A DNA stretch of 64,000 bases from an uncultured Planctomycetia bacterium (GTDB lineage Bacteria > Omnitrophota > Gorgyraeia > Duberdicusellales > 4484-171). Every line of letters begins with the position of its first letter. Position 1 is the first letter of the stretch. Below are positions 2,546 to 57,477 of the stretch, piece by piece. The stretch covers positions 394 through 64,393 of the forward strand of contig CAZSDJ010000002.1 in NCBI GenBank assembly GCA_964605645.1, written 5' to 3'. The translations under genes and the position numbers were made by a program. The notes under the pieces were generated by a model that worked only from the letters and a program-made list of their open reading frames with translations, ran no database searches and was not told the DNA's origin.

Positions 2546-3643
2546 ATGAAGAGTAAAGACAAGTCAGAGAGTAGTTTCAGGAAAGGATTGAGAAAGTTAA
2601 AGCAGCATAAGCTGGCGGTGTTTTCTTTTTGGCTGTTGTTGATTTTCTATTTATCGGCTTTTTTTGCGCCAATGATTGCTCCTTATCATTACAAGACTGA
2701 AAAGAGAGCATTTAGCTATACACCGCCTTCTAAAATTCATATTATTGATGATAAAGGAAATTGGAATTGGCCTTTTATTTATCAGCGAAGTTATCAATTT
2801 AATCAATTTTATAAAAAGATTTACAAAGAAGACAAAACTGTAAAATATCCTATTAAATTATTTACAAAAGGAGATAGTTATAAATTTTTAGGTTTATTTA
2901 AAACTAATATCCATATTTTGGGAGTTGATAATCCAGCTTATCTTAATATATTAGGGACAGACTCGCGCGGCCGAGATTTATTTAGCCGGATAATTTATGG
3001 TGGGCAAATTTCTTTATCCGTTGGATTAGTAGGGGTCTTTATTGCTTTATTAATTGGGGTTTTTGTAGGAGGCATTTCCGGTTATTTTGGCGGGAAAACT
3101 GATAATTTTTTGATGCGTTTTGCTGAAATTATTATGGTTATCCCCAGTTTTTATTTAATGCTCTCTTTACGGAGTATGTTTTCATATTCGTTAACTTCTT
3201 TACAAATTTATTTTATTATTGTGTTTATTATGTCTTTTATTGGTTGGCCACAGATGGCGCGAGTGGTTAGGGGGATGGCCATATCTTTGCGCCAACGGGA
3301 ATATGTTTTGGCTTCACGCGCTCTCGGCAGCAGTCATTTTCAAACAATTAAAAAACACATTATACCGCATACATTCTCTTATTTGATAGTTTCTGTCTCA
3401 ATCTCAATCCCCGGTTATATTTTAGGAGAATCCGCTTTAAGTTTACTCGGCCTCGGAATTCAAGACCCTTATGCCAGTTGGGGCAATTTATTGTCAGAAT
3501 CGATGGCGATTGCTCAAATTAGGCTGCATCCCTGGGTACTTATCCCGGGTATTTTTATTTTTATTACAGTTATGGCCTTTAATCTATTAGGTGACGGCCT
3601 GCGGGATGCGTTCGACCCGCATGCTGATTTTATTAAAAAATAA
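2546..3643 (+). CDS. ABC transporter permease (OppC/DppC-like) with long N-terminal extension
   Basis: 365 aa multi-TM permease second in the operon. An 8-mer gtaaagag is repeated 3 times just upstream and includes the RBS. Confidence 0.8.
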   Translation: MKSKDKSESSFRKGLRKLKQHKLAVFSFWLLLIFYLSAFFAPMIAPYHYKTEKRAFSYTPPSKIHIIDDKGNWNWPFIYQRSYQFNQFYKKIYKEDKTVKYPIKLFTKGDSYKFLGLFKTNIHILGVDNPAYLNILGTDSRGRDLFSRIIYGGQISLSVGLVGVFIALLIGVFVGGISGYFGGKTDNFLMRFAEIIMVIPSFYLMLSLRSMFSYSLTSLQIYFIIVFIMSFIGWPQMARVVRGMAISLRQREYVLASRALGSSHFQTIKKHIIPHTFSYLIVSVSISIPGYILGESALSLLGLGIQDPYASWGNLLSESMAIAQIRLHPWVLIPGIFIFITVMAFNLLGDGLRDAFDPHADFIKK

Positions 3644-7339: not shown

Positions 7340-7368
7340 TTGACATTTACCTATATATTATATATAAT
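7340..7368 (+). promoter_or_regulatory. consensus sigma70-type promoter TTGACA-17-TATAAT upstream of lysS
   Basis: TTGACA at 7340-7345, 17-nt spacer, TATAAT at 7363-7368. The ATG at 7378 is about 10 nt downstream with no Shine-Dalgarno, implying a near-leaderless transcript. Confidence 0.55.
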
Positions 7369-7377
7369 CAGCAAGTC

Positions 7378-8808
7378 ATGGAAAACGAAGCCTTTAACAA
7401 AAATATAGACAAATTTGGCAATCCTTTTCAGGAAACCAGCTTTCCTAAGCCTTTATCTATCAAGGATATAGTTAATCAATACAGGGAAGAAAAACCGGTT
7501 TCATTAGCCGGCAGAGTTGTTTCGAAGCGGGAACACGGAAAATCGGGTTTTGCTCATTTAGCTGATGCGAGCGGAAAAATTCAAATTTATGCCCGTTTGA
7601 ATAATTTGGCTGAAAAATTTGAGTTGTTCAAAAACTTAGATATTGGCGATATTGTTGGGGTTGAAGGTAAACTTTTTATAACTAGAACCGAAGAGATTAC
7701 AGTTATAGCCGATCAGATAAAATTGTTGGCAAAAGCCTACAGGCCTTTGCCGGAGAAATGGCATGGCTTAAAAGATGTTGAAGTAAGGTATCGGCAGCGT
7801 TACCTTGATTTGATAGCTAACGACCAAGCTTGTGATGTTTTTAGAAAAAGAACAGAAATAGTGGCTTTGGTTCGAAAGTTTTTTGAAAACCTTTCATTTA
7901 TGGAAGTTGAAACTCCGATGCTGCATCATATCCCCGGCGGAGCAGCGGGACGGCCTTTTGAAACCTTTCACAACGCTACATCAAATAAAGTTTATTTGCG
8001 AATTGCTCCTGAACTTTACCTAAAAAGGCTTTTGGTGGGAGGGTTTGATAAAGTTTTTGAGATAAACAGAAGTTTTCGCAACGAGGGATTATCGAGGCGG
8101 CACAATCCGGAGTTTACGATGCTGGAAGCTTATGCAGCTTATTTTGATTATCAGTTTATGATGAAAGTTTGTGAAGATTTATTTACAAAGTTGGCAGAAA
8201 AATTTTGCGGTAGTTTAATCTTTGAATACCAAGGTAAAAAAATAGATTTTACAGCTCCTTGGCAAAGAATTTCTTTAACAAGCCTTTTTAAAAAAGAATT
8301 TGATATTAATCCCGAAGATGAATATAAAGAAGTAGTTTCAAAAATTAGCAAGAAAATAAAATTAAAAGAAGGATTGTCACGAACTCAGATACTTAAATTA
8401 TGCGAAGAGTTGATAGAAAAGAATTATCCTCAAGATAAACCGGCTTTTATTATTGATTTTTTTACTTGGACTTCGCCTTTAGCAAAGCAAAGGCCGGAAG
8501 ATCCGAATTTAGTGGAAAGATTTGAATTGTTTATCGCCGGCATTGAAGTTGCAAATGCTTATTCAGAGCTTAATGATCCGGTTGAGCAAAAACAACGGTT
8601 TTTGGCCCAGCAAAAAGATAAAGAACTTGATGCTAAAATAGATCAAGATTTTATAAAAAGCCTCCAATACGGGATGCCGCCGGCAACCGGCTTAGGAGTC
8701 GGGATAGATCGATTAGTAATGATTCTGCTCAATCAGCCTTCTATTCGGGATGTAATTCTTTTTCCTCTCTTGAAGTTAAAACAAGAATCTGAAGAAAAAA
8801 AATGTTAA
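7378..8808 (+). CDS. lysS: lysine--tRNA ligase (class II)
   Basis: N-terminal OB-fold region, class II motif 2 FRNEGLSRRHNPEFTMLEAY, motif 3 GxGIDRLVM. Confidence 0.92.
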   Translation: MENEAFNKNIDKFGNPFQETSFPKPLSIKDIVNQYREEKPVSLAGRVVSKREHGKSGFAHLADASGKIQIYARLNNLAEKFELFKNLDIGDIVGVEGKLFITRTEEITVIADQIKLLAKAYRPLPEKWHGLKDVEVRYRQRYLDLIANDQACDVFRKRTEIVALVRKFFENLSFMEVETPMLHHIPGGAAGRPFETFHNATSNKVYLRIAPELYLKRLLVGGFDKVFEINRSFRNEGLSRRHNPEFTMLEAYAAYFDYQFMMKVCEDLFTKLAEKFCGSLIFEYQGKKIDFTAPWQRISLTSLFKKEFDINPEDEYKEVVSKISKKIKLKEGLSRTQILKLCEELIEKNYPQDKPAFIIDFFTWTSPLAKQRPEDPNLVERFELFIAGIEVANAYSELNDPVEQKQRFLAQQKDKELDAKIDQDFIKSLQYGMPPATGLGVGIDRLVMILLNQPSIRDVILFPLLKLKQESEEKKC

Positions 8809-10623: not shown

Positions 10624-10630
10624 GTAGGAA

Positions 10631-10790
10631 AGATACAAGATACAAGAAACAAGATGCAAATAAATTCCAAATCCCAATATCCAATAATCAAACATAGACC
10701 AGAGGGGTAGTTTGAAAATTGGTTATTGTATCTTGGTTATTGTTTGTATCTTGTAACTTGTATCTTGGTTATTTCGATTGTGCCTTGATT
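10631..10790. repeat. inverted arrays of heptamer repeats (CAAGATA)n ... (TATCTTG)n in lolD-ilvE intergenic region
   Basis: agatacaagatacaagaaacaagatgc at 10631-10657. Complementary ttgtatcttggttattgtttgtatcttgtaacttgtatcttgg at 10726-10768. Can pair into a long imperfect hairpin. Confidence 0.6.
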
Positions 10791-10831
10791 GTTGGTTGTT
10801 TTGATTACGAAAATGTTACAGGAGGAGTAAG

Positions 10832-11707
10832 ATGAAAGTATATCTTAATGGGAAGTTGGTAGATAAAAAGGATGCTAAAATTTCTGTATTTGATCATGGT
10901 TATTTGTATGGAGATGGTGTTTTTGAGGGGATAAGATCTTATAATCAGTTAGTTTTTAAGTTAGACGAGCATATAGGCCGTCTTTATGAATCAGCGCATT
11001 CGATAATGCTGCAGTTTCCTTTTACCAAGAAACAAATGGAAAAAGCAATAATTACAACTATTAAGGCAAATAAATTGAAAGATGCCTACATCAGGGTTAT
11101 TTTGTCACGAGGCGAGGGTGATCTTGGCCTTGATCCCAGAAAGTGTAAGGGTAATCATACTTTAGTTATTATAGCTGATAGAATCTCACTTTTTCCGAAT
11201 GAACTTTATAAACAAGGGATGGAAATAGTAACCGTTCCTACAGTGAGAAATTTACTGGAGGCGGTAAACCCGCAAATAAAATCTTTAAATTATTTGAATA
11301 ATGTTTTAGCAAAGATAGAAGCAATAAATTCCGGGCATCAGGAAGGGCTGATGTTAGACCATCTTGGTTATGTGGCGGAATGCACCGGAGAAAATATTTT
11401 TGTGATAAAAAGAGGGGAACTTTACACTCCACCTCAATGCATGGGTACTTTACGCGGGATTACCAGAGACACCGTGTTAGGCCTTGCCAAAAAATTAAAA
11501 ATTCCTGCCCATGAACATGTGTTAAGCAGGCATGAATTTTACATTAGTGACGAATCTTTTTTAACCGGAACTGCTGCAGAAATTGTGCCGGTAGTGAAAG
11601 TCGATGGCAGAAAAATCGGGGATGGGAAACCGGGTAAAGTTACGAAAAAAATAATGAAAGAGTTTCATAAATTAACTAAGAAGGATGGAGTCAAATATAG
11701 TTTATAA
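10832..11707 (+). CDS. ilvE: branched-chain-amino-acid aminotransferase (class IV PLP enzyme)
   Basis: 291 aa. N-terminus VFDHGYLYGDGVFEGIR is typical of IlvE/DAAT fold type IV. RBS GGAGGAG 6 nt upstream. Confidence 0.8.
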   Translation: MKVYLNGKLVDKKDAKISVFDHGYLYGDGVFEGIRSYNQLVFKLDEHIGRLYESAHSIMLQFPFTKKQMEKAIITTIKANKLKDAYIRVILSRGEGDLGLDPRKCKGNHTLVIIADRISLFPNELYKQGMEIVTVPTVRNLLEAVNPQIKSLNYLNNVLAKIEAINSGHQEGLMLDHLGYVAECTGENIFVIKRGELYTPPQCMGTLRGITRDTVLGLAKKLKIPAHEHVLSRHEFYISDESFLTGTAAEIVPVVKVDGRKIGDGKPGKVTKKIMKEFHKLTKKDGVKYSL

Positions 11708-11760
11708 TTAAAAAAATTAGATAATGTTAAAAATTTAATGAAAAATGAAATAATATTGTC

Positions 11761-11788
11761 ATTGCGAGGAGCACAGCGACGAAGCAAT
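11761..11788. repeat. ATTGCGAGGAGC-N-CGACGAAGCAAT element (copy 1)
   Basis: 28-nt element with 5-bp terminal inverted repeat ATTGC/GCAAT. A near-identical copy is at 53899-53927. Confidence 0.6.
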
Positions 11789-11811
11789 CTTTATGACTGG
11801 CGAGGAATAAA

Positions 11812-11990
11812 GTATTCGCTAAATAATTTCATTAAGTATAAAGGCATCTCGCCGAGGAAGTTGGCTCGATGTCATTAAAAATAAAGGTATTCGTTGAAGA
11901 ATAATATTAGGTATAAGGCATCTCGCCGAGGAAGTCGGCTCGATGTCATTAAAAATAAAGGTATTCGCTAAATATATTCATTTTTAATGA
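11812..11990. repeat. about 75-bp tandem direct repeat (2.3 copies) in clpC upstream region
   Basis: Unit gtattcgctaaataatttcattaagtataaaggcatctcgccgaggaagttggctcgatgtcattaaaaataaag. Copies at 11812-11886, 11887-11961, partial 11962-11990. Confidence 0.7.
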
Positions 11991-11997
11991 GGAGGGG
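11958..11997 (+). promoter_or_regulatory. conserved leader block with palindrome TCATTTTTAATGA abutting RBS GGAGG of clpC
   Basis: aaggtattcgctaaatatattcatttttaatgaggaggg is about 95% identical to 19022-19060 upstream of yacL. Perfect 5-3-5 palindrome at 11978-11990. Confidence 0.6.
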
Positions 11998-12000
11998 AAG

Positions 12001-14442
12001 ATGTTTAATCGATTTACGGAACGGGCCAGAAAGGTATTAGTGTTAGCAAAAGAAGAATCAAGGAGATTTAATCATGATTATATCGGCACAGAACATATTC
12101 TTCTCGGTTTAATCCGAGAAGGAGAAGGCGTTGCTTGTGCTGTTTTACAAAATATTGGTATGGATTTAGGGCGCCTGCGGGCCGAAATAGAAAAGCTGAT
12201 GTCGCCGGGCAGCACAGCATCAGTTTTAGGAGATATCCCTTTTACGCCGCGGGCAAAAAAAGCATTAGAACTTGCTACCGAAGAGGCGCGGGGATTAGGG
12301 CATAATTACATCGGCACAGAACATATTTTGTTGGGGTTATTGCGGGAAGAAGAGGGGATTGCTTCTCAGGTTCTTTTTTCGTTAGGGGTAGATATCAAAA
12401 AAGCAAAAAATGAAATAGCTGCACTTTTAGGGGGAGTGTCAGAATCGAGCCGCGCTCAATCAAAAAGAACTGCATCGAGGACCCCGGCTCTAGATTCTTT
12501 TGGCAAGGACCTTACTAAATTACAAAAAGAAGGCGAATTGGATCCGGTTATCGGCAGGAAAGCGGAAATTGAAAGAGTAATCCAGATTTTGTCGCGGCGA
12601 ACCAAGAATAATCCGGTGCTGTTGGGAGAAGCCGGAGTGGGCAAAACTGCGATTGTAGAGGGGTTGGCACAAAGTGTTGTGAGAGGCGATGTGCCGGAGA
12701 TTTTACGCAATAAGAGGATAATAGTACTTGATTTAGCATTGATGATTGCCGGGACTAAATACAGAGGCCAGTTTGAAGAGCGAATTAAAGCGGTGATGGA
12801 AGAAATTAAACGTTCTAAAGATGTAATAATTTTTGTTGATGAACTTCATACTTTAGTTGGCGCAGGAGCTGCGGAAGGCGCAATTGATGCATCAAATATT
12901 TTAAAACCGGCATTATCAAGAGGAGAAATCCAATGTATCGGAGCAACAACCTTAGATGAGTATCGCAAGCACATTGAAAAAGATGCAGCTCTGGAGAGAA
13001 GGTTTCAGATGATTTTTGTGGAACCAAATACCGTATCAGAAACAATTCAAATTTTAGAAGGCTTAAGAGACAAGTATGAAGCTCATCATCGCGTGAAATT
13101 TACTGATGAATCTCTTGCAGCTGCGGCTAAATTTTCAGATCGTTATGTTTCAGGCCGGTTCTTACCGGATAAAGCTATTGATTTAATTGATGAAGCAGGA
13201 GCAAGGTCTCGGCTTGCAATATTAACTGCTCCGGATGGAGTAAAAAAAATAGAAGATAAAATCTCGGAAATAGTTAGAGAAAAAGAAGCTTTTATCAGGC
13301 AGCAAGATTTTGAACAGGCAGCAAAATTGAGGGATGAAGAAAAAAAACTGCGTTTTGAACTCGAAGATTTAAGGCGTGAATGGGGGAAAAAGAGAGATAA
13401 AATTTCACCGGAGGTAAAGGAAGAGGATATTGCTAAATTGGTTTCACAAATAACAGGAGTACCTACTTATCGGTTAGAGCAAAAAGAATCAGAAAAATTA
13501 ATGAAGATGGAAGATTATTTATCGAAAAAAGTTATTGGCCAAGCAGAACCAATTCATGCGATTTCGCGGGCGGTACGCAGGGCCAGAGCCGGGGTTAAGG
13601 AACCGCGCCGGCCGATTGGTTCTTTTATGTTTTTAGGCCCTACTGGGGTAGGGAAAACTTTATTGGCAAGAGCCTTAACGGAATTTATGTTTGGTAATGA
13701 AGAATCATTAATTCAGTTGGATATGAGTGAATATATGGAAAAATTTAATGTATCAAGGCTGGTAGGGGCTCCGCCGGGTTATGTTGGCTATGAAGAAGGC
13801 GGGCAATTAACCGAAAGGGTAAGGCGGAGGCCGTATTCTGTAATTTTGTTGGATGAGATAGAAAAGGCACATCCTGATGTATACAATCTGTTACTCCAGA
13901 TTTTAGAAGAAGGCCGTCTCACTGACAGTTATGGGCGATCGGTAGATTTTAGAAATGTAATCTTGATTATGACTTCTAACGTAGGAGCAGATATTATTCG
14001 TCAAAAAGGGTCGTTAGGGTTTAAATCCAAGCAGGAAGGTGTTGGTTATCAGGAAATGAAAACAGCCTTATTAGATGAGGTTAAAAAGAAATTTAAGCCG
14101 GAATTTCTAAACAGGTTAGATGAAATTACGGTTTTTAAATCTTTAGATAAAAAATCATTAGAAAAAATAGTTGAAATAGAAATAGGGTATGTAAACCGGC
14201 GGCTTCAAGATCAAGGTTTTGTGGTAAAACTTAGCCCGGGAGCTAAGGATTTTTTTATTGAAAAAGGCTTTGATCCAAGTTATGGGGCCCGGCCCTTAAA
14301 AAGAGTTATCCAGAGATTTTTAGAAGACCCTTTAGCCGAGGATATTATTAAAGGCAGATTTTCCGAAAGAATAAAGAAGGCAAAAGAAAAGCCAATTACA
14401 ATTAAAGCTTTAAAAAAAGGACAAATATTAAAATTTGAATGA
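12001..14442 (+). CDS. clpC: ATP-dependent Clp protease ATP-binding subunit ClpC
   Basis: Two N-terminal Clp R repeats, two AAA+ modules (GEAGVGKT and GPTGVGKT), UVR-like linker [26 protein letters not shown]. 813 aa. Confidence 0.92.
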
Positions 14443-16837: not shown

Positions 16838-16887
16838 AAGTCCAAAGTTTTTTGACATAGGACGTAGGACATAGGACGATGGACTAT
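16838..16887. repeat. heptamer repeat array (GGACNTA)x5 preceded by AAGTCCAAAGT, mlaF-mlaD spacer
   Basis: aagtccaaagttttttgacataggacgtaggacataggacgatggactat. Member of the dispersed AAGTCC/GGAC heptamer family. Confidence 0.7.
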
Positions 16888-16905
16888 AAAAAGGGAGGAA
16901 TATAG

Positions 16906-17653: not shown

Positions 17654-19015
17654 ATGACTTGTGACTTTAATATTATGTATAGTTGTAAAGAATGCGGATA
17701 TCAATCAATAAAGTGGATGGGTAAGTGCCCTAATTGCGGGGGTTGGGAAACTTTTTTGCAAAAAATTAGTGAATCTTCTTCCCGAAAATTAAAATCTCGG
17801 CCCAAATCAGTTCCTCGTCTGCTTAAAGATATTGGTAAAATAAAAAACGAAAGAACAAAAACTGATCTTTCTGAATTTGACCGGATTTTGGGCGGAGGGT
17901 TAATAGCCGGCCAGGTAATATTGATTGGAGGTGAACCGGGGATTGGAAAATCTACGCTTTTGCTGGAGGTAGCTTCTAAATTATCAAAAGAAGGAAAAAC
18001 TATGTATGTAAGTGCTGAAGAATCGCCGCAGCAAATTGGAGTTAGAGCTGAGCGCCTGGCAAATGTTTATCCCGAAAAACTTTATATTAGTGATGAAGAA
18101 AGAGTGGAAAATATTTATAAAACTATTGAATCAGAAGGATTTCAATTTGTAGTTGTAGATTCTATTCAAGTTATGACTAGTGCTTTTGCCGACGGTGCCA
18201 AGGGGAGTGTTCTTTCGGTCAGAAGTTGTGCTGATTATCTAACTCAGGCAGCAAAAGCGTTAGGAGTTGTAATATTTATAGTGGGGCACGTTACAAAGTC
18301 GGGTACAATCGCCGGGCCTAAGCTGCTTGAACATATTGTAGATAGTGTACTTTATTTTGAGGGTGAAACTCTATCTAATTATCGAATTTTACGTTCAATT
18401 AAAAACCGATTTGGGCCAACGGGCGATATTGCTGTTTTTGATATGACATCCAGCGGTTTATCGGAAGTTAAAAAGATTAATGATATTTTTTTGCCGCATA
18501 AAAAAGAATCGTCTCCCGGGAGTTGTGTTATTTGCCCTTTACAAGGTTCGCGTCCAATTTTAGTTGAACTGCAATCACTTGTAAGCCGGGCAACTTTTGG
18601 AACAGTAAGAAGAAGAAGCTTAGGTTTTGATTTTAATCGATTTTCTTTATTGGTTGCGATAATTGAAAAAAGGTTGAAGGCTAAAATATCCGGTGAAGAT
18701 ATTTTTTTAAATGTTGCCGGCGGCCTGCGTATCAATGATCCGGCTGCAGATTTAGGGGCGGTAGTTGCGATTATCTCCAGTTTTTTAGAAAAAAAAGTTC
18801 CTGCCGGAGGGGTATTTATTGGTGAAGTGGGGTTAGGAGGAGAGTTAAGGAAAGTTCGGGATATAAATTCAAGGTTGCGAGAAATAGAGAGGGCAAATTT
18901 CACTTATTGTTATTTGCCTGAGGCTAACAAAAAAGAAGTGGATAAAAAATTTGTGAATAAGGTTTTTGGTTTTTCCAATTTAGGAGAAATTTATCAGGAA
19001 CTTTTTAAAAGTTGA
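17654..19015 (+). CDS. radA: DNA repair protein RadA (Sms)
   Basis: N-terminal C4 zinc finger CKECGY...CPNCGGW, RecA-like Walker A GEPGIGKST, KNRFG motif, C-terminal Lon-like domain. Alternative start at 17675 (MYSCKECG). Confidence 0.9.
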   Translation: MTCDFNIMYSCKECGYQSIKWMGKCPNCGGWETFLQKISESSSRKLKSRPKSVPRLLKDIGKIKNERTKTDLSEFDRILGGGLIAGQVILIGGEPGIGKSTLLLEVASKLSKEGKTMYVSAEESPQQIGVRAERLANVYPEKLYISDEERVENIYKTIESEGFQFVVVDSIQVMTSAFADGAKGSVLSVRSCADYLTQAAKALGVVIFIVGHVTKSGTIAGPKLLEHIVDSVLYFEGETLSNYRILRSIKNRFGPTGDIAVFDMTSSGLSEVKKINDIFLPHKKESSPGSCVICPLQGSRPILVELQSLVSRATFGTVRRRSLGFDFNRFSLLVAIIEKRLKAKISGEDIFLNVAGGLRINDPAADLGAVVAIISSFLEKKVPAGGVFIGEVGLGGELRKVRDINSRLREIERANFTYCYLPEANKKEVDKKFVNKVFGFSNLGEIYQELFKS

Positions 19016-19021
19016 TATTGT

Positions 19022-19060
19022 AAGGTATTCTCTAAATATATTCATTTTTAATGAGGAGGG
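19022..19060 (+). promoter_or_regulatory. conserved leader block with palindrome TCATTTTTAATGA abutting RBS GGAGG of yacL
   Basis: Near-identical to 11958-11997 (clpC leader). Palindrome at 19042-19054. Candidate -35 TTGATA at 19017-19022. Confidence 0.6.
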
Positions 19061-19063
19061 TGT

Positions 19064-20053
19064 ATGTGGGCTTTAGTTTTTTTACGAATATTTTTTATTT
19101 TTATTTTTGTGGTATTGGGTTTTTCTTTAAGTAAAGGTAATCCTTTATTATTTGCTGCAATCGGCCTCGGTACAGGGATTTTTGTAGTAGTTTTAGAGAT
19201 GTTTGGGCGCAAAGTATCATTAAAAGGCTTAAGCAGTGCTGTGTTTGGAATTTTACTGGGCTTATTGCTTTCTGCTGTCTTTGGCTTAGCTTTAGCTCAG
19301 TTTCCTTTGCCTGCTGATGTGACACCTGATTTTTTAGATAATATTAAATTGTTTGTTACTTTAGTTTTTGTTTACCTGGGTTTAACTTTGGGGATCAAAG
19401 GCCAGGATGAATTTAATTTGGTTATCCCTTATGTAAAATTTAAAAGAGGAGAATCGAGAGAAGAAGAAATTATTGTTGATACAAGTAGTATTATCGACGG
19501 GAGAATCCTGGATATTGTAAAAACCGGTTTTGTTGAAGCAAAATTTATTATTCCTCGCTTTGTGTTGAATGAAATGCATACTTTAGCTGATTCAACTGAT
19601 CACATGAAAAGGCAGAAAGGAAAAAGGGGGATAGAAATATTACATGATTTAAAAAAACAGCCGAATATCGACATTGAAGTTACGGAAGAAGAAATTGCCG
19701 TAGTGAAAACAGTTGATGAAAAGATTATTAAATTAGCTCAAAAACACAGCGCTAAAGTGTTAACTACAGATTATAATTTAAATCGAATTGCTCAATTTCA
19801 GGGAGTAAAAGTATTAAATATCAATGATCTTGCGAATGCCTTAAAGCCGTCTTTGATAACGGGTAATACTTTTAATTTGAAATTAGTGAAAGAAGGTAAA
19901 GAACGGAATCAGGCAATAGGATATCTAGAAGATGGAACGATGGTAGTTGTCGAGGGCGGCAAGAAATTAGTGGGAAAAACTGTGAATGTAGAAGTTGCTT
20001 CTGTATTACAGAATCCAAGTGGTAGAATTATTTTTACAAAATTAAGTAGTTAA
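19064..20053 (+). CDS. yacL: PIN/TRAM domain membrane protein (YacL-like)
   Basis: N-terminal TM helices, PIN-like core, C-terminal TRAM-like beta domain. Position after radA and before ispD/ispF as in the Firmicutes clpC-radA-disA-yacL-ispDF locus. Confidence 0.7.
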   Translation: MWALVFLRIFFIFIFVVLGFSLSKGNPLLFAAIGLGTGIFVVVLEMFGRKVSLKGLSSAVFGILLGLLLSAVFGLALAQFPLPADVTPDFLDNIKLFVTLVFVYLGLTLGIKGQDEFNLVIPYVKFKRGESREEEIIVDTSSIIDGRILDIVKTGFVEAKFIIPRFVLNEMHTLADSTDHMKRQKGKRGIEILHDLKKQPNIDIEVTEEEIAVVKTVDEKIIKLAQKHSAKVLTTDYNLNRIAQFQGVKVLNINDLANALKPSLITGNTFNLKLVKEGKERNQAIGYLEDGTMVVVEGGKKLVGKTVNVEVASVLQNPSGRIIFTKLSS

Positions 20054-29122: not shown

Positions 29123-29177
29123 TAATAAATAATTGAAAATATTGTTGAATATGATATACTTTTCAAATGAATCTTAC

Positions 29178-29219
29178 TCCTTGACAATCAAACTGCCTAG
29201 ATAGTATATTTGTCAAGGA
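29178..29219 (+). promoter_or_regulatory. rpsB promoter P1 (TTGACA-18-TATATT) embedded in inverted repeat TCCTTGACAA...TTGTCAAGGA
   Basis: TTGACA at 29181-29186 and TATATT at 29205-29210. 10-bp arms at 29178-29187 and 29210-29219. A second TTGACA at 29238-29243. Confidence 0.5.
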
Positions 29220-29314
29220 TTTAGATGAATTTGACCCTTGACATTTCTTGATGAACAAAGTTTATTATACATACATTTTACAATGCGAAAACGATATAAG
29301 GAGGAAAAAATACA

Positions 29315-30310
29315 ATGGGATTGACAGATACTATTAAAAAAATGTTGGAAGGAGGGGTTCATTTTGGGCATCTGAAGCGCAATTGGAACCCTAAAATGAA
29401 GAAATTTATTTTTGGTAGAAAGAAGAATATTTATATTATTGACTTAGAAAAAACTACTAAAAAGTTAGATCAAGCAAAAGAATTTGTTAAAGAAATAGCC
29501 AAATCAGGCGGGAATATTCTTTTTGTGGGGACCAAAAGGCAGATTAGGCCGGTGATTAAAGAGTTGGCAAATTCGTGTGACATGCCTTATGTGGACCAAA
29601 AATGGGTAGGAGGCTTGCTTACCAATTTTTCTACTATCAAAAAACGCTTGCAAAGATATCAAGAACTTCTCAAAATGCGGGAAAATGGAGAATTCGACGA
29701 CATCCCCAGTAAAGAAGTGGTGCGCCTGAATCGCCAAATTAGCCGGATGGATAAAAATTATAGTGGGCTGACCTCACTTACAACTTTACCGGATTGCGTG
29801 TTTGTGGTAGATCCAAAAAGAGAAAAATCTTCTGTAAGAGAAACAGCTAAATTATCAATTCCTTTGGTGGCTCTAATTGATACCGATGCTAACCCTGAAG
29901 AAGTAGATTACCCTATCCCCGGTAATGATGATGCAATTAGATCAGTAAAATTTATTGTCAGTTCTTTAGTTGAGGCGATAGAGGCCGGAAGAGAAAGTTA
30001 CCACAAAATAGAAAAAGAAAAAGAATCTAAAGAAAATAAAGAATTAAATGGCCAAGAAGAAAAATCGGAAGATGGAACCGAACAAGATAAAGAGCAGCAA
30101 GGAGAGAAAAAAGAGAAGGGAGAGAAATCCGAAATAGGAAATGCGAAATCCGAAAAGGAGAAAGGAGAAGAACAAAAAGAGAAATCCGAAATACGAAATA
30201 CGAAATCCGAAAAGGAGAAAGGAGAAGAACAAAAAGAGAAATCCGAAATAGGAAATGCGAAATCCGAAAAGGAGAAAGGAGAAACAAACAAAGAGGAGGA
30301 AGAGGAGTAG
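29315..30310 (+). CDS. rpsB: 30S ribosomal protein S2 with about 95-aa acidic/lysine-rich tandem-repeat C-terminal extension
   Basis: N-terminal S2 core (GVHFGH, ILFVGTKRQ, FVVDP...AL...IP). The tail contains three 19-aa repeats EKSEIGNAKSEKEKGEEQK. Confidence 0.9.
   Translation: MGLTDTIKKMLEGGVHFGHLKRNWNPKMKKFIFGRKKNIYIIDLEKTTKKLDQAKEFVKEIAKSGGNILFVGTKRQIRPVIKELANSCDMPYVDQKWVGGLLTNFSTIKKRLQRYQELLKMRENGEFDDIPSKEVVRLNRQISRMDKNYSGLTSLTTLPDCVFVVDPKREKSSVRETAKLSIPLVALIDTDANPEEVDYPIPGNDDAIRSVKFIVSSLVEAIEAGRESYHKIEKEKESKENKELNGQEEKSEDGTEQDKEQQGEKKEKGEKSEIGNAKSEKEKGEEQKEKSEIRNTKSEKEKGEEQKEKSEIGNAKSEKEKGETNKEEEEE
30122..30292 (+). repeat. 3 x 57-bp tandem repeat within rpsB 3' coding region
   Basis: Unit gagaaatccgaaataggaaatgcgaaatccgaaaaggagaaaggagaagaacaaaaa repeated in-frame. 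Explains the spurious minus-strand ORFs at 29998-30380. Confidence 0.85.
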
Positions 30311-39423: not shown

Positions 39424-39426
39424 ATT

Positions 39427-39458
39427 AGTCCATAGTCCAAAGTCCTATGTCCAAAGTC
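39427..39458. repeat. heptamer repeat array (AGTCCNN)x4.5 after DAHP synthase stop
   Basis: agtccatagtccaaagtcctatgtccaaagtc. Overlaps the annotated tyrA 5' end, whose true start may be 39474. Confidence 0.7.
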
Positions 39459-40310
39459 AATATTAGAAATGATATGGAGTTGAAGCAAGTTAAAAAAGTT
39501 GGGGTTATCGGAGTTGGTTTAATGGGGGGCTCTTTAGCCTTGGCTCTTAAGAAAAGTTTCAATAATTTTGAGATTATAGGCCATGCCAGAAGCGATAAAA
39601 CATTTAGGCGCCTTAGAAAAGCAAAGGTCTTAGATAGGATTGAAAGGTCTGATAAAAAAATTGCTCAAGAAGCGGATATTCTAATTTTAGCTACTCCGGT
39701 GGGGATAATTATTGATCTTTTAAAGAAATTAGCTCCTCACCTTAAAAAAGGAGCAATTGTTTTTGATTTAGGAAGCAGTAAAAAAGAAATAGAAAAAATA
39801 GCTAAAAGCAATCTTTCTAAAGGAGTTTATTTTGTGGGTTGCCATCCTTTTTGCGGTTCAGAAAAAAAAGGAGTTGCCAGAGCCAGAGGGGATCTTTACC
39901 AAGATTCAATATGCTTTATAACTTCAAAAAATAAAGCAACACCGGTAGTTTCCAAAATTTGGAAAAAAATTGGTGCTATTGTTATTCAAGTAAACTCAAA
40001 AGCTCATGATAAAATTACTTGTTTTCTTTCGCACCTACCTCATCTTATTTGTTTTTCTTTGCTGAATACAGTACCGAATAATTATTTAAATTTCAGTTCG
40101 TCAGGTTTTCGTGATTTTACCAGAATCGGTTCTTCTTCCGATAGCCTTTGGACCGATATTTTTTTAACCAACAAAAAAGAAATATTAAAAAGTATAAATA
40201 AAACAAAAAAAGAAATAGGTAAATTTACTAAAGCAATTAAAACAGAAGACCGGAAAAAAATAAAAATATTAATAAAGAAAGCAAACAGAAAAAGAACTAA
40301 AGTTTTATGA
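39447..40310 (+). CDS. tyrA: prephenate dehydrogenase
   Basis: Rossmann VGVIGVGLMGGSLALAL. Alternative start 39474 (MELKQVKK) would place the heptamer repeat in the intergenic region. Confidence 0.8.
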   Translation: MSKVNIRNDMELKQVKKVGVIGVGLMGGSLALALKKSFNNFEIIGHARSDKTFRRLRKAKVLDRIERSDKKIAQEADILILATPVGIIIDLLKKLAPHLKKGAIVFDLGSSKKEIEKIAKSNLSKGVYFVGCHPFCGSEKKGVARARGDLYQDSICFITSKNKATPVVSKIWKKIGAIVIQVNSKAHDKITCFLSHLPHLICFSLLNTVPNNYLNFSSSGFRDFTRIGSSSDSLWTDIFLTNKKEILKSINKTKKEIGKFTKAIKTEDRKKIKILIKKANRKRTKVL

Positions 40311-43386: not shown

Positions 43387-43700
43387 TTAAAAGTCCAAAG
43401 TCCAAAGTCCAAAGTCCAAAGTCAATAAAAGAGATTAGTTTACTTTTTATAATAGGTTTGTTTTTAATTGGTTGCATTAGAACTCAGGAATATATTTATC
43501 AAGAGGATGCTTTTAAGAAAGTTGAAGAAGTTGAAGGACAGCCGGAAGAAAAGTTAGAAATTGGCCAAGAAAAATGGATGGATATTTATTTCGAAGAAAA
43601 TAATTTTATTATGCAGTGTCCGGTTTGTATGAGAAGATATCCGGGCAATGTAGAAAAATGTCCTTATGATGGGGCAAATTTAGATAAAATTAAGGAGTAA
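43383..43700 (+). CDS. small lipoprotein with C-terminal zinc-ribbon (CPVC...CPYDG); N-terminus encoded by heptamer repeat
   Basis: Start overlaps the lepB stop (ATGA). N-terminus KSPKSKVQSPKS translates the (AAGTCC)n array. Lipobox LIGC. C-terminal CxxC-x13-CxxDG. Confidence 0.5.
   Translation: MIKSPKSKVQSPKSIKEISLLFIIGLFLIGCIRTQEYIYQEDAFKKVEEVEGQPEEKLEIGQEKWMDIYFEENNFIMQCPVCMRRYPGNVEKCPYDGANLDKIKE
43391..43423. repeat. heptamer repeat array (AAGTCCA)x4.5
   Basis: aagtccaaagtccaaagtccaaagtccaaagtc. The most regular copy of the family. Confidence 0.8.
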
Positions 43701-52355: not shown

Positions 52356-52357
52356 AA

Positions 52358-52463
52358 AGTCCTAAGTCCAGAGTCCTATGTCCTGTGTCGAAAAAATAAT
52401 TAAGAAAGATTTAATAAATTATAAAAATTATGACGTTGGACTTAAGACGTAGGACCTTGGACT
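52358..52463. repeat. inverted pair of heptamer arrays (AGTCCNN)x4 ... (GGACNNN)x4 flanking a 48-nt A/T-rich spacer, hisB-hisH intergenic
   Basis: Left arm aagtcctaagtccagagtcctatgtcctgtgtc at 52358-52389. Right arm ggacttaagacgtaggaccttggact at 52438-52463, the approximate reverse complement. Confidence 0.75.
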
Positions 52464-52471
52464 AAAATATT

Positions 52472-53128
52472 ATGACAGTAATAGTTGACTATGGGATGGG
52501 TAATTTAGAGAGTGTAAAAAACGCGGTTCTTTTTTTAGACAAAAAAGTAATTATTACCAGCTCACCTAAAGACTTACTCGCGGCTGAAAAGATTATTTTT
52601 CCCGGTGTGGGCCATTTTGGAAAAGCAATAACTGAATTAAAAAAAAGAGGGCTTGTTGAAATTTTAAAGAAAAGAATTAACCAAGGTATACCTTTTTTAG
52701 GAATTTGTTTAGGGATGCAATTGCTATTTGAAAAAAGCAGCGAAGCAGAAGGGGTAAACGGCCTTGGCCTGATAAAAGGAGAAGTTTTAAAGTTTAATTC
52801 TAAAAATTTAATTGTGCCTCATATGGGGTGGAATCAGATAAATAAAGTCCAAAGTCCTAAGTCCAAAGTCTCCGCCTCCGCCAAGACTATGGCGGACAAG
52901 CTAAGTCAAGAAAAGGGGTTGTTTGAGGGGATTGAAGACGGCAGTTATTTTTATTTTGCCCACTCTTATTTTTGTAAGCCCCATGAAGATGTTACCTTAG
53001 CAACCGTTGATTATGGTGAAAATTTTAGTTGTGCTATACATAAAAAAAATATTTGGGCTATTCAATTTCATCCGGAAAAAAGCCAAAAGAAAGGCTTAAA
53101 AGTTTTAGATAATTTCTTAATAATTTAG
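52472..53128 (+). CDS. hisH: imidazole glycerol phosphate synthase glutaminase subunit HisH, with in-frame repeat-derived insertion
   Basis: Class I GATase triad (GICLGMQ Cys, HPE His). Extra segment KVQSPKSKVSASAKTMADKLSQEK between the GWN and LF motifs. Confidence 0.9.
   Translation: MTVIVDYGMGNLESVKNAVLFLDKKVIITSSPKDLLAAEKIIFPGVGHFGKAITELKKRGLVEILKKRINQGIPFLGICLGMQLLFEKSSEAEGVNGLGLIKGEVLKFNSKNLIVPHMGWNQINKVQSPKSKVSASAKTMADKLSQEKGLFEGIEDGSYFYFAHSYFCKPHEDVTLATVDYGENFSCAIHKKNIWAIQFHPEKSQKKGLKVLDNFLII
52845..52870. repeat. heptamer array (AAGTCCN)x3.5 inside hisH coding sequence
   Basis: aagtccaaagtcctaagtccaaagtc read in-frame as KVQSPKSKV. Followed by the tccgcctccgcc mini-repeat. Confidence 0.75.
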
Positions 53129-53132
53129 AAAA

Positions 53133-53840
53133 ATGATAATAATTCCTGCTATTGATTTATATCAGAAAAAAGTTGTAAGATTGATTAAGGGAGAGAAGTC
53201 CGATTGTAAGGTTTATAGTGATAACCCGGTTGAGGTGGCAAAAAAATGGCAAAGCCAAGGAGCTAAGTGGCTGCATTTAGTAGATTTATCTGCTGCTTTT
53301 TCTGAAGGTGACAACAAAGATATAATCGAAAGGATTATAAGAGAAGTAAATATCTCAGTGGAGGTAGGCGGCGGTATTCGCAGTCTTGAAGAAATAGAAA
53401 AATTAGTGTCTCTGGGGACAGATAGGATAATATTAGGCACTAAGGCAACAGAATTAGATTTTTTAAAACAAGCTTTAGCTATTGCCGGTGATAAAATAGC
53501 AGTGGCAGTGGATGAAAAAGATGACAAAGTCGCAGTAGACGGTTGGCAGAAAAATAGTGATTTATCAATATCCCAATATCTAAATTATCTAAAAAAGCAG
53601 AGAGTTGAGTGGGTAATTTATACCGATATCTCTCGTGATGGCACCTTGCAAGGCTTAAATTTTTCGAAAATAAAACAATTTTTTAAAGATAATCAATTTA
53701 ATTTAATTTTTTCCGGAGGTATTTCTTGCCTAGAAGATATAAAAAGCTTAAAAACAGCAGCTCCTACCGCAAAAGGAGTAATCGTGGGAAAAGCTCTTTA
53801 TGAGAAAAGATTCAGTCTCGCAGCTGCTTTAGCTATTTAG
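53133..53840 (+). CDS. hisA: ProFAR isomerase HisA
   Basis: N-terminus IIIPAIDL, (beta/alpha)8 HisA/HisF family. 235 aa. Follows hisH. Confidence 0.85.
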   Translation: MIIIPAIDLYQKKVVRLIKGEKSDCKVYSDNPVEVAKKWQSQGAKWLHLVDLSAAFSEGDNKDIIERIIREVNISVEVGGGIRSLEEIEKLVSLGTDRIILGTKATELDFLKQALAIAGDKIAVAVDEKDDKVAVDGWQKNSDLSISQYLNYLKKQRVEWVIYTDISRDGTLQGLNFSKIKQFFKDNQFNLIFSGGISCLEDIKSLKTAAPTAKGVIVGKALYEKRFSLAAALAI

Positions 53841-53898
53841 GTTTAAGAAGATTGTAATTACAAGTGCGACAATTCTAAAAAGTAGTTTTTTACCTGTT

Positions 53899-53927
53899 AT
53901 TGCGAGGAGCGTAAGCGACGAAGCAAT
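53899..53927. repeat. ATTGCGAGGAGC-N-CGACGAAGCAAT element (copy 2)
   Basis: Differs from copy 1 (11761-11788) at about 3 positions. Lies in the hisA-MNT spacer. Confidence 0.6.
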
Positions 53928-53957
53928 CTCTCATAAATAGAGTAAAGATTGTTTCGC

Positions 53958-53996
53958 CTTTGACAACAGAACCGCTAAAATATACAGTTGTCAAAG
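53958..53996. promoter_or_regulatory. inverted repeat CTTTGACAAC-N19-GTTGTCAAAG containing TTGACA -35-like boxes on both strands
   Basis: Same architecture as the rpsB P1 region and the 27118 palindrome. Upstream of the MNT/HepT pair. Confidence 0.45.
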
Positions 53997-54116
53997 ACTC
54001 CCAATGACACTGAGACAAGTTGTTGCAATATGAGTTACAATTCACCTTGATAGTGCTCAGTTGCAAAAAAGGTGTTTTTTAGAATCTTTTTATGCTATAA
54101 TTATTCGAATATAATT

Positions 54117-54419
54117 ATGTTGACTAGAAAAGAAATATTTTCAATTTTAAAAAATCAATTGCCTTATTTACGCAATTATTTTGGTGTAAGCCGCATTGCA
54201 GTTTTTGGTTCTTTTGCAGAGGGTTCTCCGCGGGAAAATAGTGATGTTGATTTATTGGTTGAATTTGATAAATCACCCGGATTAAAATTTATAGAACTGA
54301 GCGAGTATCTTGAAAAAAAAATAGGTAAAAAGGTTGATATTTTGACACCGGGCGGCCTTAAAGGGATACGGCTTTCTAGAGTGGCTGAAGATATAAAGAA
54401 TAGTTTGCACTATGTCTAA
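54117..54419 (+). CDS. minimal nucleotidyltransferase (MNT) antitoxin of HepT/MNT type VII TA system
   Basis: GSFAEGSPRENSDVDLLV, a Pol-beta-type NTase GS...D.D motif. About 100 aa. Start chosen at MLTRKEIF rather than the ORF-track 54072. Confidence 0.7.
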   Translation: MLTRKEIFSILKNQLPYLRNYFGVSRIAVFGSFAEGSPRENSDVDLLVEFDKSPGLKFIELSEYLEKKIGKKVDILTPGGLKGIRLSRVAEDIKNSLHYV

Positions 54420-54759
54420 AAGAAATGATCTTGATTATATAGCAGACATCTTGGAAGCATTAAAAAGGATATTTTCTTACTGTGATAATTTGAATTATGA
54501 TCAATTTTTAGATGATGAAAAGACTCAGGATGCTGTAGTACGCAACCTTGAAATAATTGGCGAAGCATCTAAAAATATTTCTTCTGTTTTTTCTCAAAAA
54601 TATTCCGAAGTTACTTGGAGTGATTTAGCTAAAGTTAGAGACAAGCTTATTCATCATTATTTTGGTGTGAATATAGATATTGTTTGGAGTATTATCGAAA
54701 GTTCTTTGCCTAAACTGCAGAATCAATTAAAAGAGATTTATGATCGCGAGATTTGCTAG
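54412..54759 (+). CDS. HepT-like (DUF86/HEPN) RNase toxin
   Basis: HEPN Rx4HxY motif RDKLIHHY. 115 aa. Overlaps the MNT gene by 8 nt. Confidence 0.7.
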   Translation: MSKRNDLDYIADILEALKRIFSYCDNLNYDQFLDDEKTQDAVVRNLEIIGEASKNISSVFSQKYSEVTWSDLAKVRDKLIHHYFGVNIDIVWSIIESSLPKLQNQLKEIYDREIC

Positions 54760-54812
54760 TTTTTTAAGATTAATTGTTGACAAGACTCTATAATATGGTA
54801 TAAAAATTGCCT

Positions 54813-57375: not shown

Positions 57376-57477
57376 AGTCCAAAGTCCATAGTCCCAAGTC
57401 AAAAGAATAAACTTTATTGCTTATTTTAAAATTTAAAAATAATGACATAGGGCTTCGGACACAGGACATAGGACTAT
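57376..57477. repeat. inverted pair of heptamer arrays (AGTCCNN)x3.5 ... (GGACNNN)x4.5 flanking a 44-nt A/T-rich spacer, ribH-nusB intergenic
   Basis: Left arm agtccaaagtccatagtcccaagtc at 57376-57400. Right arm gacatagggcttcggacacaggacataggactat at 57445-57477. Confidence 0.75.

Follow-up and report, generated by a model that had tools for sequence, protein, structure and literature searches.

The 293-nt spacer between ilvE and clpC in an uncultured Omnitrophota bacterium is a composite of two independent, unrelated repeat types. It lies in a 64-kb stretch of contig CAZSDJ010000002.1, here called the window, and runs from the ilvE stop at 11707 to the clpC start at 12001. Next to clpC is a tandem array, an expansion of the clpC leader that is specific to one locus and one Omnitrophota genus, and next to ilvE is a single unit of the repetitive extragenic palindromic (REP) type. 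With fair confidence, the array is read here as a tandem leader expansion carrying an RNA hairpin, and the REP unit as an independent passenger. The two are not one system; relatives with the hairpin module are without the REP unit. The ilvE–clpC region was compared with eight further genomes, seven from the clade of the window together with L211 (loci are cited by our own labels), and the search for further copies covered 64 kb of this genome together with some 10 kb from each relative. The spacer and its two bounding genes are composed as follows.

11757–11791, + strand: solo REP-type unit, with the tag TGTC (11757–11760), the imperfect palindrome ATTGCGAGGAGC-ACA-GCGACGAAGCAAT (11761–11788) and the tail CTT.
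11809–11883, + strand: tandem unit 1, with box A (11809–11833), AAGTATAAA, the hairpin P1a (11843–11873) and ATTAAAAATA.
11884–11957, + strand: tandem unit 2, with a degenerate box A (11884–11908), the hairpin P1b (11917–11947) and the left arm of helix P2 (11948–11956).
11958–12003, + strand: partial unit 3, with the box A leader (11958–11990), the right arm of P2 (11980–11988), the GGAGG Shine–Dalgarno (11991–11995) and the clpC start codon (12001–12003).
10832–11707, + strand: ilvE, a branched-chain amino acid aminotransferase (Pfam PF01063; NCBIfam NF006185 and TIGR01122 above cut-offs).
12001–14442, + strand: clpC, with two Clp_N domains, a UVR domain and two AAA modules in Pfam, and homologues named ClpC by their sources.

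Tandem Repeats Finder places the array at 11806–11982 (period 74, 2.4 copies, 82% matches) with a score of 268, the second highest in the window, and a repeat search sets the beginnings of the 74–75 bp units at 11809, 11884 and 11958. An earlier note on this DNA had described a 75-bp unit repeated 2.3 times in tandem at 11812–11990. The array is real, but the hairpin core is not in every unit, being confined to the two full units (11843–11873 and 11917–11947), and the third, partial unit is box A only. A full unit consists of box A (AAGGTATTCGCTAAATA..TTCATT), GTATAA(A/G)G, the 31-nt hairpin P1 (GGCATCTCGCCGAGGAAGTYGGCTCGATGTC) and then ATTAAAAATA. The box A of partial unit 3, matched by a box A hidden Markov model (HMM) with E = 6e-11, adjoins GGAGG and the clpC ATG directly. 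Divergence within the array is uneven, with the 58-nt segments that contain P1 being 95% identical and the box A parts about 76%. A second helix, P2, is predicted between ATTAAAAAT, which follows the second P1, and the complementary ATTTTTAAT with which the last box A closes. The repeated CGAGGA motifs that had also been remarked upon do cluster in the spacer, with four in 170 nt, two of which are the duplicated P1 loops, but across the window the motif is at chance level (14 against 13.3 expected).

The case for RNA comes from the way in which P1 is conserved. Each P1 is the predicted minimum-energy fold of its sequence (z = -2.6 to -4.5); the hairpin of tandem unit 1 folds as RNA at -13.0 kcal/mol (z = -2.6, covariance-model match of 87 bits) and that of unit 2 at -15.1 kcal/mol (z = -3.4, 91 bits). 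All 11 pairs form in each of the four P1 sequences, with compensatory changes at three pairs (CG<->UA twice and a GC/GU/AU series) and one invariant G-U, and sliding the partners by 1–3 columns as a control leaves only 18–36% of cells paired. P1 and P2 together comprise 20 pairs, which are 100% paired and of which four are compensatory. RNA pairing is favoured over a DNA operator because P1 keeps its G-U pairs, including the GC/GU/AU series, and this G-U evidence, as read from the sequence, favours an RNA interpretation of P1.

An alternative is that the duplication acts at the level of DNA, each unit being a promoter and/or an operator, in which case two units would make tandem promoters or cooperative operator sites. 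Box A or GTATAA(A/G) would then serve as the −10 element and P1 as the operator of a dimeric repressor that replaces control of the McsA/McsB type. The invariance of GTAT-AGG just upstream of P1 in all four sequences is in keeping with such a scheme, as are the clean TATAAT directly before box A in L082, the occurrence of box A before three different genes, as a regulon site would occur, and the canonical sigma-70 promoters of this genome, such as TTGACA-17-TATAAT at 7340. The compensatory changes keep the dyad symmetry as well. However, the number of sigma-70-like matches in the spacer (3, with 2.1 expected) is what chance would give, and a good −35 is missing from all of them, whilst the invariant G-U and the G-U intermediate at the covarying position fit RNA and not the symmetry of duplex DNA. 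The arms of P1 are interrupted by a non-symmetric TC/TC, and the locus has no linked regulator gene. Tandem heptads of the CtsR type are lacking too, as upstream of clpC the operator (A/G)GTCAAA-NAN-(A/G)GTCAAA is represented by a single AGTCAAA, near 11689 inside the 3′ end of ilvE, which has no partner heptad at the spacing that the operator requires. Duplication of promoter or operator units, as the earlier note had suggested, is thus in our estimation unlikely.

The array is also variable, and the difference in copy number for which the earlier note had looked to close relatives is present. The arrangements, with the identity of ClpC to that of the window, are listed below.

L081 (ClpC 98%): spacer of 29 nt, with no box A and no P1.
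L083, L084–89 and L208 (ClpC 91%): spacers of 39–43 nt, with one box A only.
L082 (ClpC 92%): spacer of 103 nt, with TATAAT and then box A, and no P1.
L090/91 (ClpC 91%): spacer of 103 nt, with one P1 and box A.
L209/210 (ClpC 90%): spacer of 119 nt, with box A, P1 and box A.
Window: spacer of 293 nt, with two P1.

The clpC DNA of the close relatives is 80–94% identical, and the number of P1 modules amongst them is 0, 1 or 2. In a neighbour-joining tree of clpC DNA there are three clades, each of which contains a single genome with P1 beside one or more that are without it, and P1 is therefore ancestral and has been lost at least three times. The single box A of L084 resembles the 5′ part of the first copy in L209 joined to the 3′ part of the second. 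We infer that it arose as recombination between the direct repeats on either side would lead one to expect, and that the extra unit of the window would have been added in the same way.

It could be argued that such variability is merely neutral, with the array a recent slippage duplication and P1 one of many fast-evolving hairpin repeats in the spacers of this lineage. The closest relative lacks the module, as do several others, the box A in the middle is in decay (76% identity), and neighbouring spacers hold unrelated inverted heptamer arrays that differ between relatives. Yet P1 has been kept in all three clades with compensatory substitutions, L090 and L209 share P1 modules of 94% identity despite clpC DNA that is only 80% identical, and within the window the P1 copies have stayed at 95–98% identity whilst the sequence between them has diverged. 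A neutral origin is, on these grounds, quite improbable.

The last partial unit had been taken for the conserved clpC leader. This stands within the genus-level group (ClpC at least 87% identical), where a leader of the partial-unit-3 type is found upstream of clpC in L082, L083, L084, L208, L209 and L090, but it does not extend to more distant Omnitrophota, in which mcsB lies directly before clpC (L001–L006, upstream of position 3001). In L211 (ClpC 87%), mcsA and mcsB are both placed between ilvE and clpC (L211 2303–3860). The window clade has lost mcsA and mcsB (protein arginine kinase), which are missing from its ilvE–clpC junction, and the box A/P1 leader sits there instead. L211 and L007 have strong palindromes just upstream of clpC that are unrelated to P1, and a hairpin at the ilvE–clpC junction may be a recurrent solution. 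In firmicutes, clpC is controlled within a ctsR-mcsA-mcsB-clpC arrangement with CtsR heptad operators, as in B. subtilis. The Omnitrophota locus is like this operon in the logic of its neighbourhood (clpC ... radA - yacL - ispD) and in that relatives keep mcsA-mcsB upstream. It is unlike it in that the window clade has lost mcsA-mcsB, and in that box A and P1 have no sequence similarity to CtsR, CIRCE or HAIR operators.

The 75-bp unit might instead be a MITE, a miniature transposable element with inverted repeats, or a small-RNA gene that was inserted upstream of clpC. The similar short flanks around P1 (TCATTAA...TCATTAA) and its patchy presence among relatives could be read in this way. Against this, a search of 202 kb (the window and 15 related loci) with the P1 covariance model brings up the four known copies of P1 and no other copy of the unit; P1 is always at the same locus, and the 75-bp unit has no terminal inverted repeats. 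Nor does a terminator follow P1, and no Rfam match above noise was found in 11650–12100 or 53800–54130, the window as a whole having only three tRNAs. Insertion of a MITE or small-RNA gene is therefore barely credible; within the loci searched the 75-bp unit is neither dispersed nor mobile, and nothing there points to the small RNA that the earlier note had suggested.

The preferred reading, that of a leader expansion with an RNA hairpin, may be pictured as a series of steps. An ancestral module of box A, P1, box A and Shine–Dalgarno would have arisen between ilvE and clpC after the loss of mcsA-mcsB. The box A copies would then act as direct repeats through which unequal recombination or slippage adds or removes a 74–75 bp module. 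P1 (GGCAYYUCGCCRA-loop-UYGGCUCRRUGUC) would be retained as an RNA stem-loop in the ilvE–clpC transcript or the clpC 5′ leader, and most likely would act post-transcriptionally, either as a barrier to processing or decay or as an insulator that uncouples clpC mRNA from ilvE. P2 would pair an AU-rich tract that lies immediately 5′ of the site of ribosome binding, presumably also with a role at the RNA level. That P1 functions as a stability or processing barrier in the transcript or leader is a tentative proposal, possible rather than probable.

Several observations weigh against this reading. The covariation is drawn from four P1 sequences in three clades, effectively two or three independent changes, and symmetric changes would equally keep a DNA palindrome that is bound by a dimeric protein. 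The module is dispensable, since the sister genome (ClpC 98%) has a 29-nt spacer with no P1 and no box A. There are no terminator-like sites in 11600–12100, and P1 lacks a U-tract, being followed by AUUAAAAAUA. A search of a metagenome collection with the P1 pattern returned one chance match in a GC-rich coding region, a weak negative, as the collection is without even the contigs of the known Joint Genome Institute (JGI) relatives. P2 does not cover the Shine–Dalgarno but ends 2 nt 5′ of GGAGG, and in partition-function folds the predicted accessibility of the Shine–Dalgarno changes only gradually with temperature, with no switch at 10–55 °C.

The last two of these bear also on the idea of an RNA thermometer, in which the AU-rich P2 would melt at high temperature, free an AU-rich enhancer and raise ClpC translation. 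The composition of P2 is suited to such a role, with A-U in all 9 of its pairs in the window and in 8 of 9 in L090 and L209, as is its position 2 nt before GGAGG; one compensatory A-U to G-C change is seen, and clpC is a stress gene in a clade that has lost mcsA/mcsB. However, by the ROSE and fourU criterion the helix is misplaced, with the Shine–Dalgarno outside it, and the computed probability that the Shine–Dalgarno is unpaired rises only from about 0.45 to 0.7 over 10–55 °C, with the AU tract remaining paired. Moreover, relatives without the module behave similarly in the folds, and although they cannot form P2 they keep the AU tract. A thermometer is thus very unlikely. CsrA sites, consisting of GGA in the P1 loops and the Shine–Dalgarno, were also considered and dropped, as the loop of L209 is GUAAU, without GGA.

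Box A, in contrast to the single-locus P1, recurs elsewhere, and a second full copy stands before a downstream gene of the same neighbourhood.

19022–19059, + strand: second full box A leader, immediately before the Shine–Dalgarno of the yacL-like gene (blastn; HMM E = 5e-10).
Start at 19064, + strand: yacL-like PIN/TRAM gene (Pfam PIN and TRAM).
Start at 17654, + strand: radA.

A 33-nt stretch of the copy at 19022–19059 is 97% identical to 11958–11990. The box A HMM also has matches upstream of mlaD in L211, L208 and L090, and none outside this genus-level group among the loci searched. From its sequence and position, box A appears to be a portable leader that is used before yacL and mlaD too, the candidate roles being those of an internal promoter, a binding site or a region for the initiation of translation. 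Readings of box A as a sigma-54, sigma-B, sigma-32, CIRCE or CtsR element, tried by eye against the consensus sequences, gave none that was consistent across copies. Every gene around ilvE–clpC shares the + strand, in the order ABC-transporter ATPase, ilvE, clpC, a gene of unknown function (289 aa), mlaE, mlaF, mlaD, radA, yacL-like and ispD. The best ClpC matches are all from Candidatus Omnitrophota; in the protein database the relatives fall into tiers of 98%, 92–87% and about 81% identity, and the species representative nearest to it in the genome collection has 79% identity.

The other repeat type of the spacer, the REP unit at 11757–11791, would be a passenger downstream of ilvE with no function for clpC. 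The earlier note had drawn attention here to a 28-nt element bounded by 5-bp terminal inverted repeats, ATTGC...GCAAT, and these are present in both window copies. A pattern match places the element at exactly 11761–11788, and comparison with 121 other copies makes the conserved unit slightly longer, at 11758–11790. The element does recur, as had been claimed, at 53899–53927 (sequence and blastn), but this copy is 29 nt in length and has a different loop (ACA vs GTAA) rather than simply about three changes. The two copies have identical 12-nt and 13-nt flanks, and the second escapes a 3-mismatch search. No further REP unit was found in the window or the roughly 100 kb of relatives, which leaves a total of two in 64 kb; in this lineage the element would seem to have been acquired and not amplified.

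The unit is abundant in phage contigs. A pattern scan of viral contigs gave 138 matches in 116 stretches, with 121 unique contexts; ATTGC...GCAAT is in all 138 by construction of the search pattern. In the 121 contexts the conserved unit is YGTC-ATTGCGAGGAGC-loop-GCGACGAAGCAAT-C(C/T)(A/C), and the host loci span 32–70% GC. The tag reads GTC in 120 of 121 copies and is preceded by C in 60 and by T in 54; it is TGTC in the first window copy and a degenerate TGTT in the second. The 3′ tail has C at position +1 in 119 of 121 copies, C (58) or T (59) at +2 and A (54) or C (58) at +3, giving CCA or CTC, to be compared with CTT and CTC in window copies 1 and 2. An inverted partner lies within 130 nt in 56 of the 121 copies. 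No clear pattern was established in the orientation of the element relative to flanking open reading frames (ORFs).

The predicted fold has a 5-bp outer stem, a purine-rich internal loop, a 2-bp inner stem and a loop of 3–4 nt. Loops are mostly GNA triloops (61/87) or GNNA tetraloops (10/19), and all 14 of the longer inserts extend the inner stem with complementary bases, to 3–4 bp. The inner hairpin is exactly the GCGNAGC/GCGNNAGC mini-hairpin motif in 71 of the 121 copies, window copy 2 (GCGTAAGC) included, whereas window copy 1 has GCACAGC. This "mini-hairpin DNA" is a very stable motif of physical chemistry (review PMC13037366) and is not itself a genetic element. K-turn and hammerhead readings of the purine-rich internal loop were rejected, as the strand topology is wrong.

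These features can be set beside the CGTC-tagged REPs of Di Nocera, De Gregorio and Rocco (2013, BMC Genomics 14:522, PMC3733652), which are described there as having a CGTC tag (TGTC and CCTC being allowed), stems that start with A-T pairs, CCA tails and frequent dimers. They are mainly from Alphaproteobacteria but also from Cyanobacteria and other phyla, include Neisseria dRS3 and Rickettsia RPE-4/RPE-6, and no dedicated transposase is reported for them. The element is like them in its unpaired 5′ CGTC/TGTC tag, its stem starting with A-T pairs (ATTGC/GCAAT) and its frequent inverted dimers, whose spacers have complementary ends. The short 3′ tail agrees in part, being CCA or CTC. It is like them also in its intergenic position just downstream of genes with occasional in-frame genic copies, in the absence of a linked transposase, and in its occurrence in Alphaproteobacteria, Cyanobacteria and other phyla. 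Unlike families CGTC-1 to CGTC-4, for which 8–9 bp stems and 4–5 nt loops are described, it is 28–29 nt with a 5-bp outer stem and an inner GC-(GNA/GNNA)-GC mini-hairpin, a comparison made on the described dimensions. Also unlike the CGTC REPs as described, it is abundant in phage contigs and low-copy in this genome. Judged by its tag, the start of its stem and its dimers, the element is a variant unit of the CGTC/TGTC-tagged REP superfamily; it is filed as a variant, and not as one of the four described families, because the stem and loop dimensions differ.

A wider resemblance exists to the REP/BIME elements of E. coli and to REPIN-RAYT systems, which are likewise short intergenic palindromes, often in inverted pairs. 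For these repeats a role in stabilising mRNA 3′ ends, or as structures that resemble terminators, has been proposed, as has movement in the form of single-stranded DNA hairpins. Unlike the GTAG REP/REPIN-RAYT type, the element has the tag YGTC, and no RAYT gene is seen in the window, the only place where one was looked for.

The element is intergenic and unannotated on plasmids of Methylosinus, Methylocystis, Novosphingobium, Methylobacterium and the cyanobacterium Aulosira, and in Novosphingobium it occurs at no fewer than 40 places on one replicon, that is, at least 40. The idea that it is a mobile or recognised element is thus well founded to the extent that it is a dispersed, CGTC/TGTC-tagged REP-type repeat found across phyla. 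Rfam gave no match in 12 loci with full REP dimers, and literature searches with the element sequence or its peptide strings returned unrelated primer matches only. The genes that adjoin the 138 viral copies, when clustered, are phage structural genes only (portal, capsid), with no transposase, and the ORF list and the Pfam domains of neighbours show no transposase-like ORF near either window copy.

Two further observations concern the element within the spacer. The window ORF at 11738–11878 is spurious, a short ORF or ORF extension caused by the REP unit (with peptide strings such as SLRGAQRRSNL and VIARSEATKQ). The left arm of P2 (window 11944–11956, with equivalents in L090 and L209) begins TGTC-ATT(A/G)AAAAT, the same TGTCATT start as the REP unit (TGTC-ATTGCGAGG), which is probably a coincidence.

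The second window copy is part of a larger structure, the parts of which are as follows.

53896–54008, + strand: complete inverted REP dimer of about 113 nt, partly degenerate, with a left unit at 53896–53930 and a right unit at 53947–54008.
About 54117–54419 and 54412–54759: MntA/HepT type VII toxin–antitoxin pair (Pfam and NCBIfam).
53849–54769, + strand: 921-bp insertion that separates hisA from the rplM promoter, carries the REP dimer and MntA/HepT and is flanked by the 7-bp direct repeat TTTAAGA (53842–53848 and 54763–54769).

The left unit of the dimer is GTT-ATTGCGAGGAGC-GTAA-GCGACGAAGCAAT-CTC, and the right unit is degenerate with an extra hairpin at 53959–53996; on both strands the predicted fold of the dimer is a four-way junction (z = -4.9). 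The dimer has no RYYYAAC/GTTRRRY cores, for which reason it was not taken for an integron attC site. The insertion also holds a terminator-like hairpin and a promoter-like TATAAT. The site is empty in L216 and in the sister genome, L215, which comes from the sample that also gave L081; in both, rplM comes directly after hisA, so that the remote copy noticed earlier beside a toxin–antitoxin locus proves to lie inside a 921-bp insertion that the sister genome lacks. Comparison with the empty site of L215 places TTTAAGA at both junctions, and no terminal inverted repeats were found by eye. For the block as a whole, microhomology-mediated insertion fits as well as transposon-like insertion. A scan of viral sequences brought up no relatives of MntA.

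Filled and empty sites are also seen in phages, where related contigs differ at homologous sites in whether they have the REP unit. At one filled site the unit, with a C-rich 12-nt leader, sits between a Shine–Dalgarno and a start codon (L092 4312–4390 vs L151, L099 and L157), and another copy lies in frame inside a portal gene, where it encodes ...LSLRGAQRRSNLE... (L121, minus strand, about 1173). Tandem arrays of three complete REP dimers, with a period of about 157 nt, occur in the GC-rich viral contigs L159 (3095–3437) and L206. The 33-nt sequence is nearly invariant across hosts of 32–70% GC, phages and toxin–antitoxin neighbourhoods, because, it is proposed, a trans-acting enzyme recognises the mini-hairpin. 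In full, the proposal is that the YGTC-ATTGCGAGGAGC-(GNA)-GCGACGAAGCAAT unit would belong to the CGTC REP superfamily as a member that is active at present and spreads horizontally, with a trans-acting enzyme of wide availability recognising its mini-hairpin in single-stranded DNA, which we regard as speculative and rather unlikely.

Other repeats and promoters were noticed in the window. At 7340–7368 there is a perfect TTGACA-17-TATAAT promoter consensus, which ends 9 nt before the ATG at 7378 of a 476-aa ORF; the counterpart of this ORF at the same position in relatives has class II aminoacyl-tRNA synthetase domains, and its mRNA would be leaderless or nearly so. Upstream of rpsB, at 29163–29260, is an imperfect 32-nt inverted repeat with CCTTGACA / TGTCAAGG and a third CCCTTGACA. 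The CCTTGACA palindromes, which are found here (29163–29234) and upstream of clpC in L211, were considered as a heat-shock operator but are more simply −35-type TTGACA elements; either strong −35 elements or an operator common to the two sites is probable. In the 3′ part of rpsB itself, a 57-nt in-frame tandem repeat (30121–30283, 2.9 copies, 96% matches) gives ribosomal protein S2, of 331 aa in total, a repetitive Lys/Glu-rich C-terminal extension.

Many intergenic spacers contain heptamer arrays, in which a 7-nt tandem repeat (for example AAGATAC, AAGTCCA or GGTTAAA) is followed by a complementary array to form a long imperfect hairpin. Paired arrays lie at 10630–10806, 16838–16890, 52357–52455 and 57376–57474 of the window and solo arrays at 39426–39462, 43390–43423 and 52844–52870, and they are found also in the mlaF–mlaD and mlaD–radA spacers of L082–L084, L090, L208, L209 and L211. 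The heptamer sequence varies among close relatives at one and the same spacer. We take these arrays to be reminiscent of the cyanobacterial STRR repeats.

For the REP family, the present element extends the CGTC-tagged REPs to the Omnitrophota and to many phage contigs, in a variant that is built around the very stable GCGNAGC DNA mini-hairpin. The filled and empty pairs, namely the phage Shine–Dalgarno site, the portal copy and the 921-bp insertion, bear on how transposase-less CGTC REPs spread, and if the unit does travel actively they would make its means of movement open to direct test. For clpC, a genus without mcsA-mcsB has a modular leader, in which the number of hairpins (0, 1 or 2) differs between near-identical genomes. 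If P1 affects the stability or translation of clpC mRNA, these genomes would form a natural dosage series for a stress chaperone, and would also show regulatory regions evolving by unequal recombination.

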